Source: Patescibacteria group bacterium (GTDB lineage Bacteria > Patescibacteriota > Minisyncoccia > Phycocordibacterales > GCA-2747955). From it: DNA of 64,000 nt. The position numbers and the translations under genes were made by a program. This document shows positions 21,833 through 52,233 of the stretch, in pieces (the first letter of the stretch is position 1; every line of letters starts with the position of its first letter). Where the stretch lies: NCBI GenBank assembly GCA_048538215.1, contig JBLYPV010000001.1, positions 75,495 to 139,494 on the forward strand. The letters are read 5' to 3'. Under the pieces are notes generated by a model. The model searched no databases, was not told the DNA's origin, and saw only the letters and a program-made list of their open reading frames with translations.

Positions 21833-21893
21833 TATCTCGTAAAACTGCCTAATAATATAGAATCCACATCGCGGAGTGGAGAAATGGTATCTC
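21833..21893 (+). repeat. Direct repeat copy 2 (61 nt) running into the complete tRNA-fMet
   Basis: Exact 61 nt identity with copy 1, 99 nt period. Confidence 0.85.
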
Positions 21894-21940
21894 GGGAGGC
21901 TCATAACCTCCAGAAGTTGGTTCGATTCCAACCTCCGCAA
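21870..21940 (+). tRNA. tRNA-fMet, putative initiator (anticodon CAT, C1:A72 mismatch)
   Basis: Acceptor CGCGGAG/CTCCGCA with unpaired C1-A72, D-stem GAGA/TCTC, anticodon loop CTCATAA, T-loop TTCGATT; anticodon stem GGAGG/CCTCC has only two of the three canonical initiator G:C pairs. Confidence 0.7.
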
Positions 21941-21980
21941 CAAGTTAGACCGAGGGCGACTAACCCGAGAACTTGCTTCT

Positions 21981-21998
21981 CTAGAGCAAAAGCTCTAG
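21981..21998 (+). other. Hairpin CTAGAGC-AAAA-GCTCTAG between two tRNA genes
   Basis: 7 bp perfect stem; possible processing or structural element. Confidence 0.35.
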
Positions 21999-22010
21999 CC
22001 CAGATTATTT

Positions 22011-22087
22011 GTCAGGGTAGCTCAGATGGTTAGAGCGCAGCACTCATAACGCTGAGGTCGTGGGTTCAATCCCCACCCTTGACACCA
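22011..22087 (+). tRNA. tRNA with CAT anticodon (elongator Met or lysidine-modified Ile2), CCA encoded
   Basis: GTCAGGGTAGCTCAGATGGTTAGAGC..., anticodon loop CTCATAA, T-arm GTGGGTTCAATCCCCAC. Confidence 0.75.
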
Positions 22088-22168
22088 ATAAGTATTCAGA
22101 TCTTGCATTTATCAATAGTTTGGATATACTTTCAAAAAATTTTGTGCGTAATCACACTAAACTAAAAA

Positions 22169-22210
22169 AATAAGCCAAGCATATTATATATATGCGGTCG
22201 TAGCTCAACT
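22169..22210 (+). repeat. Direct repeat copy 1 (42 nt): leader plus 5' fragment of tRNA-Asp
   Basis: AATAAGCCAAGCATATTATATATATGCGGTCGTAGCTCAACT identical to 22267..22308. Confidence 0.85.
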
Positions 22211-22266
22211 CAAGGTAAGAATAAAGCGAGCACTTGGTGCGGATATCACCTAAAACTATCGAAAGG

Positions 22267-22308
22267 AATAAGCCAAGCATATTATATATATGCGGTCGTA
22301 GCTCAACT
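22267..22308 (+). repeat. Direct repeat copy 2 (42 nt) running into the complete tRNA-Asp
   Basis: Exact identity with copy 1, 98 nt period. Confidence 0.85.
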
Positions 22309-22368
22309 GGTTAGAGCACCCGCCTGTCACGCGGGAGGCTGAGGGTTCAAATCCCTTCGACCGCGCCA
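22292..22368 (+). tRNA. tRNA-Asp (anticodon GTC), CCA encoded
   Basis: GCGGTCGTAGCTCAACTGGTTAGAGC, anticodon loop CTGTCAC, T-loop GGTTCAAATCC. Confidence 0.85.
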
Positions 22369-22375
22369 AGTAAAG

Positions 22376-22395
22376 TCGCCTTTAGAGGCGATTTT
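22376..22395 (+). terminator. Rho-independent terminator (TCGCCT-TTAG-AGGCGA + TTTT)
   Basis: 6 bp stem, T-run; ends the plus-strand tRNA cluster. Confidence 0.65.
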
Positions 22396-22414
22396 GTCTT
22401 ACAGGAAAGAAAGC

Positions 22415-22447
22415 AAGCCACTTGGGAGCTCGGCTCCCAAGTGGCTT
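22415..22447. repeat. Palindromic repeat, longest intergenic copy AAGCCACTTGGGAGC-TCG-GCTCCCAAGTGGCTT (15 bp arms)
   Basis: Perfect inverted arms; lies between convergent tRNA clusters. Confidence 0.85.
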
Positions 22448-22467
22448 ATGTAGTACCAAATAATGAA

Positions 22468-22485
22468 AAGACCTTTTCAGGTCTT
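22468..22485 (-). terminator. Hairpin AAGACC-TGAAAA-GGTCTT plus T-rich tract on minus strand, terminator for tRNA-Thr(GGT)
   Basis: 6 bp stem immediately 3' of the minus-strand tRNA. Confidence 0.5.
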
Positions 22486-22487
22486 TG

Positions 22488-22563
22488 TGGAGCCACCGCG
22501 CAGGGTCGAACTGCGGACCTCATCCTTACCATGGATGCGCTCTACCTACTGAGCTACGGCGGC
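22488..22563 (-). tRNA. tRNA-Thr (anticodon GGT), CCA encoded
   Basis: Reverse complement GCCGCCGTAGCTCAGTAGGTAGAGC...ATGGTAA...GCAGTTCGACCCTGC...CGGTGGCTCCA. Confidence 0.8.
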
Positions 22564-35525: not shown

Positions 35526-36254
35526 TTAAAACTCATAATTATTCCAATCAATTTCTGGCGGACAAGAGGGCGCACGCAGGAGCTCGATAGCGATGACGAT
35601 AAACATAAATAAGAACCAGGTGGCGGCAAAAGCGAGGATCACTGTATGTGCACTCTCTCCTGTTACTAAAAAATTGAAGCCAAGATGGATGATGACGGCA
35701 AGCAAAAGCCCAATAATTAAGCCAAAAAATTTTATAATTTTTGATTTAAAAAATACGAGTGATAAGCACACCCCCACTACTCCCGTGGCCACCATATGAA
35801 GAATAGTAGCTCCAATGATCCGCTTACCTCCTTCTATGGTGGCAATATCTAAATTGAAATTATTTAGATATTGCAAAAAGTAGAGAATATTTTCGAGGGC
35901 AGCAAAGCCTAGCGCGGTAGTGGTGAGATAAATAATTGGGTCAATTCTCTCATTGTAATAAGGATTGCCTTGTATAGAGCTAAACCAAGCGCCAATGTAT
36001 TTAGCATACTCTTCCACTGAAACAAACAAAATCATAGCAAGAAAAGTGCTTGTGCCAAAAAGTGTTACGACAAGTGATTGGGTAGGGAGAGTGAAAAGAG
36101 CAGCAAGGCCACCAAAAATAAATGCACTAAAAAGGTGTGTTCGTGGCTCTGGACAAAATCTATCACGGCGAGACCAAAACAAAAGCCAAAATACCGAGGG
36201 AATAAGAGAGCCAGCAAGGGCAATCATAACAAGCTCTTGTGGGGTATCAAGCAT
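35526..36254 (-). CDS. PrsW-family intramembrane metalloprotease
   Basis: EEYAKY, FAALEN and HMVATG motifs in TM helices. Confidence 0.6.
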   Translation of the reverse strand: MLDTPQELVMIALAGSLIPSVFWLLFWSRRDRFCPEPRTHLFSAFIFGGLAALFTLPTQSLVVTLFGTSTFLAMILFVSVEEYAKYIGAWFSSIQGNPYYNERIDPIIYLTTTALGFAALENILYFLQYLNNFNLDIATIEGGKRIIGATILHMVATGVVGVCLSLVFFKSKIIKFFGLIIGLLLAVIIHLGFNFLVTGESAHTVILAFAATWFLFMFIVIAIELLRAPSCPPEIDWNNYEF

Positions 36255-36470: not shown

Positions 36471-36542
36471 TCCTCCCGGCGGGAATCGAACCTGCATTTA
36501 ATCCTTAGGAGGGATTTGTTCTATCCATTGAACTACAGGAGG
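36471..36542 (-). tRNA. tRNA-Arg (anticodon CCT)
   Basis: Reverse complement CCTCCTGTAGTTCAATGGATAGAAC...CTCCTAA...GCAGGTTCGATTCCCGC...CGGGAGG; one A-C mismatch in T-stem. Confidence 0.7.
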
Positions 36543-36657: not shown

Positions 36658-37863
36658 ATGACGCTGTATAAGTACTCTGCTATTGATCGTGATGGCAATG
36701 AGCGTGCTGGTGAAATTGAAGCGCACAATCAGGACATCGCGATTAATTCCTTGCAAGAGCGAGGGTTTATCATTTCTTCTATTAAGGAGGCAAGTGCCAA
36801 GGGGCTACTTGAGATGAACATTACCTTAGGAGGTGTAAAGAATAAAGATATCGTTATTCTTTCCAAACAGCTTTCTACTTTATTTGAAGCCCAAGTGTCT
36901 GCGCTACGGGTGTTCCGTCTTTTGTCAGCCGAATCAGAATCACAAATTTTGCGTGAGACACTTGAGGAAATAGCTGCCGATATTTCAGATGGATCTTCTA
37001 TTACCAATGCTCTCAAAAAACACCCCCAAGTATTTTCCAATTTTTATGTCAATATGGTGGCAGCGGGTGAGCAATCAGGAAAGCTATCCCAAACATTCAC
37101 CTATTTGTCTGATTACCTTGATCGTTCATACGAGCTGACATCAAAGGCAAAAAATGCCCTTATTTATCCCGCTTTTATTGTGTCGGTCTTTGTCATTGTA
37201 ATGTATCTGATGATGACTATGGTAATCCCCAAGATTTCCAAGATTCTTACCGACGCGGGCCAAGAGCTACCTTTCTTTACCAAGGTCACTATTGGGGTGT
37301 CAAATTTTCTGGTAGATTATGGTATTTTTCTCATCATTGCTTTTATTATCGGTGGCTTCTTTCTGTATCGTTATTCTCAAACAGAAGCAGGGTCTACTAT
37401 ATTTGATGATGCCAAGCTCCGTATACCTTATGTAGGTACTCTATATGAGAGGCTTTACCTGGCGCGCATATCGGGCAACATATCTATGATGCTCGCCTCG
37501 GGTATTTCAATGGTTAAAACTCTGGAAAATACAGCTTCGGTTGTAGACAATAAAATATACGAGAATATCTTACTCGATGTCACGGATCAGGTGACTAATG
37601 GTAAATCAGTATCTGAAGCATTTGCTACCTATCCACAAATCCCTGGTATTTTTACCCAAATGGTCAAGGTGGGTGAGGAGACAGGCCGCATTTCAAATGT
37701 ACTCGATACTATGGCAAAGTTTTATGAGCGAGAGGTGGTAAACGCAGTAGATTCTTTAGTAGGATTGATTGAACCTATAATGATTGTGCTTCTCGGTGTG
37801 GGCGTTGGTGGGCTTCTCGCTTCCGTGCTCATTCCAATTTACAATATTACCGGTACCGTCTAG
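36658..37863 (+). CDS. pilC: Type IV pilus / T2SS inner-membrane platform protein (GspF/PilC family)
   Basis: Two T2SSF domains, 3 TM segments. Confidence 0.8.
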   Translation: MTLYKYSAIDRDGNERAGEIEAHNQDIAINSLQERGFIISSIKEASAKGLLEMNITLGGVKNKDIVILSKQLSTLFEAQVSALRVFRLLSAESESQILRETLEEIAADISDGSSITNALKKHPQVFSNFYVNMVAAGEQSGKLSQTFTYLSDYLDRSYELTSKAKNALIYPAFIVSVFVIVMYLMMTMVIPKISKILTDAGQELPFFTKVTIGVSNFLVDYGIFLIIAFIIGGFFLYRYSQTEAGSTIFDDAKLRIPYVGTLYERLYLARISGNISMMLASGISMVKTLENTASVVDNKIYENILLDVTDQVTNGKSVSEAFATYPQIPGIFTQMVKVGEETGRISNVLDTMAKFYEREVVNAVDSLVGLIEPIMIVLLGVGVGGLLASVLIPIYNITGTV

Positions 37864-38177: not shown

Positions 38178-38193
38178 ACCAAAAGCGATAATA

Positions 38194-38218
38194 AAAATGC
38201 CCCATAGAGGGCATTTTT
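38194..38218 (+). terminator. Rho-independent terminator after rpmF (AAAATGCCC-loop-GGGCATTTT)
   Basis: 9 bp stem, T-run. Confidence 0.7.
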
Positions 38219-38330
38219 ATAGACTTATTTATAAATTCTAGTATAATCTAGTATAGGCAAATCTGGTTGTTTAAGTATATATCTTGAACAATAAGATTTG
38301 TTTTATTGATATGATCATTTTCTGACACAT

Positions 38331-39218
38331 ATGTCCCTACGCCACTTAGCCAGACAGGTAGTCGTTCAGTCATTGTTTACATGGGATTTCTACAATCAGG
38401 ATGCTGATCGTGTGGATGAATTTTTGAATTGGAATTTGGATCGCTATCGAGATACTTTGGTGGACGCAGATTTTCCTCGTACTTCTTATGAGGGAGTAAT
38501 AAAAAAAGTAGATGTTATAGATCAGATTATCACCAAAGCCGCTCCACAGTGGCCTATTGATCGGATCGCTTCTGTAGATAGAAATATTCTTCGGTTGGGG
38601 ATATATGAGATGCTTTTTGCCAAATCAGGCGATGTGCCTCCTCGAGTGGCCATCAATGAAGCGATTGAGCTCGGGAAAACTTTTGGTGGAGTCAATACCT
38701 ATAAATTTATTTCAGGAGTGCTTGGCTCAGTATATGAAGCATCTGATTTGAAAAAAAGCGATACCTATATTCCTAAGGTCGAAGATCCAGACACTTTTCC
38801 CACCGTAGCAAAGGTAGGAGCTGTAGTATATGCCGAAGATGAGAAGGGGGCGCTTTTGGTTGCACTCGTGCATGACATTTTTGGCAAATGGACTCTTTCC
38901 AAGGGTGGCGCTCTCGAAGGAGAAAGTGAAGAAGAGACTTGCGCTCGATCGGTAAAAAAAGAAATTGGAATCGAGGTTGAGGTAGGCAAAAAAATTACAC
39001 GCACAGAATATATAGCGCGACACCCTAAGATGGGCAAAATTAAAAAGCAGGTCACCTACTATGTATGCAGGTCGGATTATCTTCCACTCGAGCTCGAACA
39101 AGAAAATGATGGGCTCAATGATGCTCGCTGGATTCATTTAGATGAGCTGGAAAATCTCGAAACCTATGATGATATAAAGCCAATTATTTATGAAGGAATT
39201 CGTATGGCTACCCAATAA
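38331..39218 (+). CDS. nusB: NusB antitermination factor fused to a C-terminal Nudix hydrolase domain
   Basis: Residues 1-140: RIASVDRNILRLGIYEMLF...VAINEAIELGKTFGG...FISGVLG (NusB); residues about 170-290: Nudix-like box GGALEGESEEETCARSVKKEIGIEV. Confidence 0.7.
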   Translation: MSLRHLARQVVVQSLFTWDFYNQDADRVDEFLNWNLDRYRDTLVDADFPRTSYEGVIKKVDVIDQIITKAAPQWPIDRIASVDRNILRLGIYEMLFAKSGDVPPRVAINEAIELGKTFGGVNTYKFISGVLGSVYEASDLKKSDTYIPKVEDPDTFPTVAKVGAVVYAEDEKGALLVALVHDIFGKWTLSKGGALEGESEEETCARSVKKEIGIEVEVGKKITRTEYIARHPKMGKIKKQVTYYVCRSDYLPLELEQENDGLNDARWIHLDELENLETYDDIKPIIYEGIRMATQ

Positions 39219-39231
39219 CGAATAGTAATAT

Positions 39232-39930
39232 ATGGATACACTACCACTTACACAATTCCAAGAAGCAATCGGGATACAATTTAATGATAGTGATGTACTA
39301 GAGCGGGCATTTACCCACCGCTCTTATCTTAATGAGCAAATAGAAAATGAATCCCGCCACAATGAGCGATTAGAATTTTTAGGTGATGCGGTATTAGAGC
39401 TCGTTATTACAGATTTTTTGTACCAAAAATTTCCCCGTGAAAAAGAAGGGGTGCTCACCGCCTATCGTGCTGCTTTAGTGAATACAGATTCGCTTGCAAT
39501 GAGCGCGCGTGCTCTAGAAATGGATGAGTATTTGCGTATGTCGAAAGGAGAGCGAATGGATACACAAAAAGGCCGCCAACACATTCTCGCTAATACTTTT
39601 GAAGCATTTGTCGGGGCGCTATATGTTGATCAAGGTTATGGGCAGGCACGAGATTTTATTGCTAGCCAGCTCTTTCCTAAAATTGATACTATTATAAAAA
39701 ATAAGCTTTTTCGTGATCCAAAATCTTATTTTCAAGAACAAGCCCAAGACCGCCAACGCATTACCCCACATTACGCTCTTGTAGACGAAGAGGGGCCTGA
39801 CCACGACAAGGAATTTGTAATGGCAGCCTATCTCGAGAATGAAGAAATAGCTCGTGGCAAGGGGCCTAGTAAGCAAAAGGCAGAAACAAATGCTGCTCAA
39901 AATGCTTTAGAGGCCTTGGGTTGGGATTGA
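39232..39930 (+). CDS. rnc: Ribonuclease III
   Basis: ERLEFLGDAVLEL signature plus C-terminal dsRBD. Confidence 0.9.
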   Translation: MDTLPLTQFQEAIGIQFNDSDVLERAFTHRSYLNEQIENESRHNERLEFLGDAVLELVITDFLYQKFPREKEGVLTAYRAALVNTDSLAMSARALEMDEYLRMSKGERMDTQKGRQHILANTFEAFVGALYVDQGYGQARDFIASQLFPKIDTIIKNKLFRDPKSYFQEQAQDRQRITPHYALVDEEGPDHDKEFVMAAYLENEEIARGKGPSKQKAETNAAQNALEALGWD

Positions 39931-40459: not shown

Positions 40460-41182
40460 ATGCACCCTGATCCAATTTCATCCACTAAAGCGCAGGAAAT
40501 TATTTTTAAAAATAAAGTGTATGAGCGTATTCTTATACGGACTCCACGAATAGATGCTGGTAGTGATCTTGGCCATATTATTATTGAAAGCTACAAGGGC
40601 GAGTGGTATGACGGAGACATACTTTGTATTGCTGAATCGGTAGTAGCAATTAGCCAGCATCGTGCTTATAAAATTAGTGATATTACTCCTGGATTTACTG
40701 CTCGTTTATTAGCTCGCTTTGTACAAAAGACTCCACAAGGCATTGGCTTGGGAATGAGTGAGACTATGCAATTAGCCTTAGAAGAAATCGGCTATCTTCG
40801 ATTATATAGCGCAGCTATTATCGGGGGCATTACCAAGCTTTTAGGAAGACGAGGAGATTTTTATCGAATTGCAGGTGAAAAAGCTCGAGGCATAGATGGA
40901 CCTACCTCTAATACTCTCCCACCATACAATGAATATGCCACCCTTTTACCCAAAGATCCTCAGAAAGTAGTGGATACTTTAGAAGCATACCTTACTGAAA
41001 AAACGACAAAGCGGATTGAGATTATTATTGTAGATGCCAATGATATTGGGGTAAACATAATTGGAGCTCGTAGCAAAGAGCAAGAAGCACTGGGAAAGGC
41101 TCTGTGTGCCGACAATCCAATGGGGCAAGGGCATGAGCAGACTCCCATTTTACTTGCGCGAGTACAAGACAAGAATACCTAG
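40460..41182 (+). CDS. F420-0:gamma-glutamyl ligase-like (CofE family) protein, tentative
   Basis: Pattern GDILCIAESVVAISQHRAYK...GIGLGMSE...LRLYSAAIIGGITK resembles PF01996. Confidence 0.45.
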   Translation: MHPDPISSTKAQEIIFKNKVYERILIRTPRIDAGSDLGHIIIESYKGEWYDGDILCIAESVVAISQHRAYKISDITPGFTARLLARFVQKTPQGIGLGMSETMQLALEEIGYLRLYSAAIIGGITKLLGRRGDFYRIAGEKARGIDGPTSNTLPPYNEYATLLPKDPQKVVDTLEAYLTEKTTKRIEIIIVDANDIGVNIIGARSKEQEALGKALCADNPMGQGHEQTPILLARVQDKNT

Positions 41183-52049: not shown

Positions 52050-52074
52050 CTTTTTTTATAAAACTGGAGCCACT

Positions 52075-52150
52075 TGTCAGATTCGAACTGACGACCTACG
52101 GTTTACAAAACCGTTGCTCTACCAACTGAGCTAAAGTGGCGTGCCGAGGG
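52075..52150 (-). tRNA. tRNA-Thr (anticodon TGT), CCA encoded
   Basis: Reverse complement GCCACTTTAGCTCAGTTGGTAGAGC...TTTGTAA...GTCAGTTCGAATCTGAC...AAGTGGCTCCA. Confidence 0.85.
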
Positions 52151-52151
52151 A

Positions 52152-52233
52152 GGGAATCGAACCCTCACTCCCGAAGGAACACGATTTTGAGTCGTGCGCG
52201 TCTACCAATTCCGCCACCTCGGCATTGTTATGG
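52152..52233 (-). tRNA. tRNA-Leu (anticodon CAA), type II
   Basis: Reverse complement GCCGAGGTGGCGGAATTGGTAGACGCG...CTCAAAA...long variable arm...GGGTTCGATTCCC; 1 nt from the adjacent tRNA-Thr. Confidence 0.85.

Follow-up and report, generated by a model that had tools for sequence, protein, structure and literature searches.

The subject of this analysis is a gene, here called nusB-nudix, that joins the transcription antitermination factor NusB to a domain of the Nudix fold. It lies in a 64,000-nucleotide stretch of DNA from a Patescibacteria group bacterium (contig JBLYPV010000001.1); the whole stretch is referred to below as the window. Judged from sequence comparison, a core transcription factor has here been elaborated throughout a lineage, by an added domain that has kept its ligand pocket while its catalysis has relaxed. 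The reading that we favour, tentatively and with slightly less than even confidence, is that the protein consists of a genuine NusB and a tethered Nudix binding module whose ligand would be an RNA 5' end. Full-text literature searches returned no description of the NusB-Nudix architecture, which is thus new with respect to the literature searched; both protein families, the RsmB fusion and non-catalytic Nudix modules are each known separately.

One reading frame, two domains

The nusB-nudix open reading frame occupies positions 38331..39218 on the + strand, starts with ATG and encodes 295 amino acids plus a stop (NCBI MFW0870958.1). It is a single continuous frame of 295 codons with no internal stops and no frameshifts. 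A first-pass annotation of the window had described the two halves as a single protein, and the check for a frameshift or stop, now run, bears this out: neither is present in the frame. Both of the peptides quoted in that annotation can be located in the protein, VAINEAIELGKTFGG...FISGVLG at residues 106-132 and GGALEGESEEETCARSVKKEIGIEV at residues 192-216.

The NusB domain covers residues 1-136 (38331..38738, + strand) and comprises seven helices. The Pfam NusB model PF01029 matches residues 7-135 with 101.8 bits (cutoff 23.1), and the NCBIfam nusB equivalog TIGR01951 scores 115 bits (cutoff 88.35), so that the earlier assignment of the N-terminal ~140 residues to NusB stands. A flexible linker rich in Lys, Glu and Pro follows at residues 137-159 (38739..38807, + strand), with low conservation and a low predicted local distance difference test (pLDDT) score. 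The remainder, residues 160-295 (38808..39215, + strand), is a Nudix-fold domain of the diadenosine tetraphosphate/polyphosphate (Ap4A/ApnA) hydrolase type, recognized by Pfam NUDIX PF00293 (residues 161-280, 46.5 bits, cutoff 21.1), by Foldseek and by comparison of profiles with the Protein Data Bank (PDB). The proposal of a Nudix domain with an alpha/beta fold in this half was therefore correct, with PF00293 above its cutoff and Foldseek template-modelling (TM) scores of 0.85-0.89.

The best 120 homologue clusters, drawn from NCBI, ENA, JGI and Logan assemblies, are 45-100% identical to the protein and mostly about 295-305 residues long. Both Pfam domains are found in 117 of them, and in the other 3 the Nudix half has degenerated beyond recognition by Pfam. 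Because the homologues align without a break over the domain junction and from the same Met start, neither the fusion nor its start codon is an assembly artefact. The idea that two genes have been joined by chimeric assembly, a frameshift or an overlooked stop is scarcely credible, given the continuous frame and the recurrence of the same architecture in hundreds of independent NCBI, ENA, JGI and Logan assemblies.

Spread of the fusion

The survey of relatives suggested in the first-pass annotation finds the same architecture recurring across Patescibacteria assemblies. In a scan of GTDB with one genome per species and tblastn confirmation, at least 585 nusB-nudix candidates were found. The best 80 of these are near full-length matches (query residues 1 to 276-295), all from Patescibacteria, and include Paceibacterota/Minisyncoccota and Nomura-, Kaiser-, Lloyd-, Taylor-, Giovannoni- and Tagabacteria. 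Over a large part of Patescibacteria, NusB appears normally to take this fused form. The architecture had been called unusual, and with respect to model bacteria and the literature searched it is; within much of Patescibacteria it is apparently the usual one, and the protein itself was already deposited under a plain NusB name. The NCBI title of MFW0870958.1, which comes from a 622,806-bp contig, reads 'MAG: transcription antitermination factor NusB [Patescibacteria group bacterium]' (MAG, metagenome-assembled genome).

The Nudix half alone was also searched against a set of 1.84 billion representatives, at the level of 50%-identity representatives. Among the best 150 matches, 58 are NusB fusions. 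Most of the shorter matches begin with a NusB C-terminus or with the linker and are fragments of fusions, which suggests that free-standing orthologues of this Nudix subtype are rare. No second NusB and no second Nudix of the same type was found within the 64-kb window.

Three variants of the architecture were seen along the way. P0256 (1219 residues) has an N-terminus of STAND NTPase/TPR type ahead of NusB-Nudix and may represent the read-through of two genes; P0187 (577 residues) carries an N-terminal region of about 310 residues, with no family assigned, ahead of NusB-Nudix; and in P0127 (200 residues) the first ~60 residues of NusB are joined straight to the Nudix domain, by an internal deletion or as an artefact.

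The NusB half

In the AlphaFold2 model, helices span residues 2-20, 25-38, 47-58, 60-70, 81-96, 104-118 and 123-137, with pLDDT mostly >85. The family profile matches Thermotoga maritima NusB (1tzt) with E = 8e-29, and NusB chains overall with E-values from 8e-29 to 2e-19; no superposition on a NusB structure is found among the 50 best Foldseek matches listed. This is the more conserved half of the protein, with a mean column conservation of 0.72 versus 0.68 for the Nudix half.

The positions that contact BoxA and NusE, as located by alignment with the Escherichia coli protein, are invariant or nearly so in the family. F126, invariant in 118 sequences, aligns with E. coli F122, which stacks on U8 of BoxA and whose F122D mutant is defective (PMC3177189). 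D83, invariant in the same set, aligns with E81, which hydrogen-bonds U8 of BoxA (PMC3177189), and F16, at least 90% conserved there, aligns with Y18, which is buried in the interface with NusE and is the residue altered by the nusB5 mutation (PMC3177189). N122 aligns with D118, a position at which Asn or Lys raises affinity for BoxA (PMC3177189). In the structure of the Aquifex aeolicus NusB-NusE-BoxA complex, the conserved BoxA-binding surface is carried by helix alpha7 (PMC3177189). Because the equivalog cutoff is passed and the contact residues are kept, we file residues 1-136 as a genuine NusB, predicted to bind S10 and boxA.

The linker and the arrangement of the domains

The model, built with 118 homologues, has a mean pLDDT of 90.4 and a predicted TM score (pTM) of 0.54. 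It consists of seven long helices, a low-confidence stretch at about residues 141-150 (pLDDT ~62) and then the alpha/beta domain, and indicates two well-defined domains whose predicted position relative to each other is not fixed, this position being uncertain because of the pTM value. The segment from Y135 to G163 varies between 25 and 34 residues across the family, is 20% Lys and is the least conserved segment of the protein. The tether begins at the end of helix alpha7, and the Nudix domain presumably emerges beside the RNA bound by NusB. In most fused homologues the linker has the motif YKExGEPGKD followed by a Lys-rich run; the subclade of the window protein has YEASDLKKSD instead.

The Nudix half and its subfamily

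Foldseek places the Aquifex Ap4A hydrolase 3i7u first (TM 0.89, 1.8 A), with the Thermus Ndx1 Ap6A hydrolase 1vc8 also close (TM 0.87); for small Nudix enzymes the probability is 1.00 and TM is 0.85-0.89. Further close matches are mycobacterial MutT1/Rv2985 (a diadenosine polyphosphatase), human NUDT2 and Chlamydia CT771. E. coli RppH is 41st in the ranking, and NudC and Dcp2 give only alignments with a large root-mean-square deviation (rmsd; NudC >11 A). Comparison of the profile of the Nudix half with the PDB returns CT771 (3e-11), aq_158 (1e-9), Ndx1 (5e-9), NUDT2 and the Caenorhabditis elegans Ap4A hydrolase (both 1e-7) and Dcp2 (7e-7); in this comparison Ap4A/ApnA hydrolases outrank all other Nudix classes. 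By fold and profile alike, then, the C-terminal half is assigned to the Ap4A/ApnA-hydrolase clade of the Nudix fold.

Other Nudix subfamilies were tried and rejected. The best RppH model, NF001936, scores 25.2 bits against a cutoff of 118, and the MutT models score 17.5 bits against 97.9 (TIGR00586) and 14.8 bits against 148 (NF008044); ADP-ribose pyrophosphatase, NudI and IDI models are likewise far under their curated cutoffs. For NudC, the NAD(+) diphosphatase, the equivalog NF001299 gives 16.1 bits against a cutoff of 158, so far below that the decapping of NAD-capped RNA, raised in the first-pass annotation as a possible role, is not borne out.

The catalytic box and the ligand pocket

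The Nudix box of reference is GX5EX7REUXEEXGU, and a box was counted as intact if all four glutamates were present. The corresponding segment of the window protein, GGALEGESEEETCARSVKKEIGI (residues 192-214; 38904..38972, + strand), reads G192-x5-E198-x7-R206-S207-V-K-K210-E211-I-G-I, with RSVKKE instead of REUxEE, and is not a complete box. Glutamates 2 and 3 of the four, which are metal-binding or catalytic, are replaced by Ser207 (codon 38949-38951, + strand) and Lys210 (codon 38958-38960, + strand). The 'Nudix-like box' of the first-pass annotation is thus present as a box-like segment, with two of its four glutamates replaced. S207 aligns with E58 of NUDT2, and K210 is at the next Glu position. 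NUDT2 acts on 5'-triphosphate RNA (PPP-RNA), and its E58A mutant is inactive, leaving PPP-RNA without dephosphorylation (PMC8616924). These two substitutions run against the further claim that the domain is an active nucleotide-diphosphate or alarmone hydrolase.

The consensus box of the fused family is canonical (REIKEE). All four glutamates are intact in 59 of 120 close fused homologues and in 36 of 81 fused sequences from GTDB loci. At the 50%-cluster level they are intact in 9 of 58 fused representatives, against 38 of 52 free-standing-like relatives (Fisher p = 8e-10), and the glutamate of the 'RE' pair is kept in only 15 of those 58. Non-canonical boxes (ESKE, EVKE, EKEE, EKEK, EEEK, VVAK and others) fall into more than 20 separate runs on a neighbour-joining tree, and because of this distribution the pattern indicates repeated, independent substitution of the glutamates, often to Lys. 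All 8 members of the window subclade have S207 and K210.

The pocket presents a different picture. Across the fused proteins W187, K191, Y227, G235 and Y279 vary little or not at all, with K191 and Y227 conserved in 120/120 sequences and Y279 in 119/119. K191, Y227 and Y279 align with K42, Y82 and F128 of NUDT2, in which Lys42 and Tyr82 hold the P1 phosphate and a conserved Tyr plus a Tyr/Phe stack the adenine (PMC4734340). Nudix Ap4A hydrolases typically carry such a stacking aromatic residue downstream of their box (PMC2425470).

As a measure of constraint we used amino-acid identity per domain, since members of the window subclade are 66-82% identical and synonymous sites are probably saturated. 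Mean identity in the window subclade is 65% for the Nudix half and 77% for NusB; in the group with canonical boxes the values are 68% and 72%. From the kept identity and the fixed S207 and K210 in the subclade, we take the Nudix domain to be under selection, though not for an intact catalytic box.

The same observations bear on the idea that there is no mechanistic coupling at all, and that a housekeeping Ap4A-hydrolase gene was fused to nusB in an ancestor of these reduced genomes and has been kept for co-expression only or as a decaying vestige. The tendency of shrinking genomes to fuse genes, the decay of the catalytic residues in many lineages and a long, variable linker would all fit. We nevertheless consider it quite improbable: the domain is full length in essentially all sampled members, down to ~30% identity, its column conservation (0.68) is close to that of NusB (0.72), and several non-catalytic residues are invariant. 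A vestige would be expected to be lost or truncated often, and free-standing orthologues are hardly found.

A proposed mechanism and its alternatives

In the mechanism that we favour, the NusB domain would pair with S10 (NusE), bind a boxA-like element of the nascent leader RNA and nucleate the antitermination and rRNA-folding complex on RNA polymerase. From the end of alpha7, the flexible Lys-rich linker of 25-34 residues would hold the Nudix domain, which would be derived from an Ap4A/ApnA hydrolase and whose pocket (W187, K191, Y227, K239 and Y279) would clamp a purine nucleoside with its 5'-polyphosphate. The module would have been hydrolytic in the ancestor, an Ap4A hydrolase; in the window lineage it would be a binding module, non-hydrolytic or weakly hydrolytic, rather than an enzyme, because the pocket is kept while two of the four glutamates are now Ser and Lys. 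The likeliest ligand would be the 5'-triphosphate end, or an end capped with a dinucleoside tetraphosphate (Np4N), of the leader transcript that NusB already holds, so that the 5' end would be tied to the boxA-bound complex before processing by RNase III. In the homologues with canonical boxes, about half of the close ones, the same module would probably still convert the 5' end, as RppH and NUDT2 do. The comparisons show directly which domains are present, that they are fused, how far the fusion, the gene order and the residue patterns are conserved; that the module binds but does not hydrolyse, what its ligand is and how it relates to RNase III processing we infer.

Four considerations lead us to favour an RNA end as the ligand: the tether starts at the RNA-binding helix of NusB, the gene is locked to that of RNase III, PPP-RNA is a substrate of NUDT2, which belongs to the same clade, and a Nudix relative of the same clade is fused to RNase E/G. 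Regarding the second, synteny was counted over 80 related loci (L001-L080), considering same-strand neighbours. The gene for RNase III lies downstream in 79 of the 80, usually immediately adjacent. In the window, rnc (39232..39930, + strand; PF14622, PF00636 and dsrm) starts 13 nt past the nusB-nudix stop, and no terminator was found on the + strand between the two genes. Because of the 13-nt gap without a terminator, nusB-nudix and rnc are probably co-transcribed.

The fourth consideration concerns P0185 (8001-11225 of locus L081, ENA ERZ25069412), a 1074-residue RNase E/G with S1, thioredoxin-like and RNase_E_G domains; this type of nuclease senses the 5' end. At the C-terminus of P0185 are two Nudix-like repeats in tandem, which belong to the same clade, have degenerate boxes (e.g. 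RTVKGE) and match the profile of the NusB-fused Nudix domain with an hhalign probability of 97%. P0185 represents a second, independent recruitment of this Nudix type to RNA machinery without intact catalytic residues.

Taken further, the rRNA antitermination complex in a large part of Patescibacteria would have a built-in, Nudix-derived module that reads either a dinucleoside-polyphosphate signal or the 5' end of the RNA, still converts that end in some lineages, sits beside the boxA helix and is co-expressed with RNase III. We regard this broader picture as possible but doubtful. If it is true, the state of the 5' end (ppp or Np4N cap), or ApnA or nucleotide status, would be linked to rRNA elongation and leader processing; we know of no such coupling described for any Nus factor.

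Several points weigh against the binding of an RNA end without hydrolysis. The Fisher test on fused representatives and free-standing-like relatives overstates the significance of their difference, since the sequences are related to one another and the free-standing control set includes some fusion fragments. E198, R206 and E211 are retained in the window protein. There are Nudix enzymes that work with a non-canonical box or take a base from outside it, and the window protein may have residual or altered hydrolytic activity. The ligand is deduced only from homology to Ap4A hydrolases, with which free Ap4A, ATP or another nucleotide would agree as well as an RNA 5' end. Finally, the RNase E/G-Nudix relative is one metagenomic protein, at 29% identity.

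Some of these points, together with others, could be taken to mean that the Nudix domain of the window protein is a working pyrophosphohydrolase (RppH-, NUDT2- or Ap4A-hydrolase-like) at the antitermination complex, where it would remove pyrophosphate or an Np4N or NAD cap, or destroy ApnA. The fold and the nearest relatives are those of true hydrolases, PPP-RNA is dephosphorylated by a member of the same clade, NUDT2, the canonical RE.xEE box survives in about half of the close homologues, and not only E198, R206 and E211 but all of the substrate-contact residues are kept. An active enzyme is unlikely all the same, since the box has Ser and Lys at two of its four glutamate positions, both fixed in the subclade and one (S207) aligned with the NUDT2 position where an Ala mutant is inactive. 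Recurrent loss of the glutamates in the fused family and not in free-standing relatives would be unexpected if hydrolysis were selected, and the domain scores far under the RppH, NudC and MutT equivalog cutoffs.

The degenerate Nudix domain could also be a small-molecule sensor that binds free Ap4A/ApnA, ATP or an alarmone and modulates the assembly of NusB with S10, boxA or RNA polymerase, thereby coupling rRNA transcription to nucleotide status in an NrtR-like manner. The invariance of the Ap4A-hydrolase ligand contacts while the catalytic residues drift is what such a sensor would be expected to display; CF Im25 binds Ap4A at 2.4 uM without hydrolysis, the Nudix domain of NrtR (3gz8) is among the fold matches, and one relative is fused to sigma-70 region 4 and DnaA-type helix-turn-helix (HTH) domains. 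Neither the low pTM nor the flexible, poorly conserved linker hints at an allosteric interface, however, the NrtR superposition is poor (rmsd 11 A), and the RNase E/G fusion and RNase III synteny favour RNA. We consider a sensor rather unlikely, though nearly as plausible as an RNA-end ligand. The relative fused to DNA-binding domains is P0227 (379 residues; ENA, 4.1-kb contig), with sigma-70 region 4, a DnaA C-terminal HTH and a Nudix domain having the same FGRWTHPKG motif and the box RKTREE; it is another transcription- or DNA-linked fusion of the clade.

The genomic neighbourhood

The gene order in the window is T2SS-F/PilC, L32, nusB-nudix, RNase III, GreA, F420-ligase-like and LysRS. Upstream, rpmF (ribosomal protein L32; 37959..38177, + strand; PF01783, 55 bits) precedes nusB-nudix, and L32 is found upstream on the same strand in 75 of the 80 related loci. 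A terminator-like hairpin with a T-rich tail lies 3' of rpmF (38191..38220, + strand); it has a stem of 12-13 bp, is found on both strands and is a consensus match only. It is followed, 5' of nusB-nudix, by the promoter-like site TAGACT-16-TATAAT (38220..38247, + strand), the best in the region with 10/12 matches. Promoter-like sites in the region are no more numerous than in shuffled sequence, so this site is suggestive at most.

Downstream of rnc, a gene for SMC is found in 68 of the 80 related loci; the window has greA there instead. The presence of SMC after rnc resembles the rnc-smc pairing of Firmicutes. GreA, T2SS-F/PilC and LysRS were considered as members of the cluster and rejected, as they are not conserved across the related loci. 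Genes for RNase HII, DnaE, ThrRS and an RNase R/II-like protein recur near those loci.

Other features of the window lie close by. An open reading frame resembling F420-0:gamma-glutamyl ligase (40460-41182, + strand; PF01996, 83 bits) begins 2 nt past the stop codon of greA; in a reduced Patescibacteria genome one would not expect a CofE-like protein. Outside the conserved cluster are a PrsW-family intramembrane protease (35526-36254, - strand) and a platform protein of type II secretion or type IV pilus systems (36658-37863, + strand; PF00482, two repeats). These two genes flank a tRNA gene (36471-36542, - strand) upstream of rpmF.

A search of the 64-kb window with Rfam finds 11 tRNA genes, spanning 10813-52223, some of them clustered at 21870-22563 and at 52068-52223. 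It finds no other RNA family, riboswitches and rRNA genes included. No rRNA operon, leader or boxA that could serve as a target of NusB was found within the window.

Significance

NusB is a core, near-universal factor that normally consists of one small domain, and its lineage-wide extension suggests a differently organized transcription or processing of rRNA in Patescibacteria, which are among the largest and least understood of the bacterial radiations. The tether at the RNA-binding helix, the synteny with RNase III and the pattern of a kept pocket with lost catalysis suggest a Nus factor that reads a 5' end or a dinucleotide signal and converts it in some lineages. As a single orthologous group spans the range from canonical to degenerate Nudix boxes, the family is also useful for studying how an enzyme evolves into a binding module. 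Plain 'NusB' names in the databases conceal half of the protein.

Comparison with known systems

With the NusB proteins of E. coli, T. maritima and A. aeolicus (1ey1, 1tzt and 3r2c), the window protein has in common the all-helical fold and the residues aligned with F122, E81 and Y18. Canonical NusB is one domain of ~140 residues, whereas the window protein adds a linker and a Nudix domain of ~135 residues, and is encoded in an rpmF - nusB - rnc cluster. A precedent for the fusion of a NusB-type domain to an enzyme acting on rRNA is RsmB/Sun, the 16S rRNA methyltransferase, and RsmB models match residues 31-137 of the window protein weakly. In RsmB the partner is an S-adenosylmethionine-dependent methyltransferase and the NusB-like domain is not an antitermination factor, whereas the NusB of the window protein passes the nusB equivalog cutoff.

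For the Nudix half, the best structural and profile matches are the Ap4A/ApnA hydrolases aq_158 (3i7u), Ndx1 (1vc8), NUDT2 (3u53) and CT771 (4mpo). Common features are a W-T-x-x-K-G motif and, sandwiching the adenine, a Tyr 13 residues past the box and a C-terminal aromatic residue; those enzymes are free-standing and have REUxEE, whereas the window domain is tethered to NusB and has RSVKKE. RppH (7sp3) has the Nudix fold, is related to the Ap4A-hydrolase clade and provides a functional model for action on RNA 5' ends; in contrast, the window domain has an incomplete box, scores only 25.2 bits with the RppH model (cutoff 118) and has RppH at fold rank 41.

The Nudix domain of NrtR is a non-catalytic effector or ligand sensor within a transcription regulator. 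It resembles the window protein in that a Nudix domain is joined to a transcription-related one, and it is among the fold matches (3gz8); it differs in its winged-helix DNA-binding partner, its ADP-ribose effector and the 11 A rmsd of its superposition.

The closest functional analogy is CF Im25 (NUDT21; 3BAP-type); two glutamates of the box are absent in both proteins. CF Im25 is a Nudix protein and a subunit of an RNA-processing complex which, without two of the four box glutamates, binds Ap4A (Kd 2.4 uM) and ATP and does not hydrolyse them (PMC2425470). It differs in being eukaryotic, of another Nudix subfamily and without a transcription-factor fusion. The missing glutamates are the 2nd and 4th in CF Im25 and the 2nd and 3rd in the window protein, and the Phe on which CF Im25 stacks the adenine lies upstream of its box.

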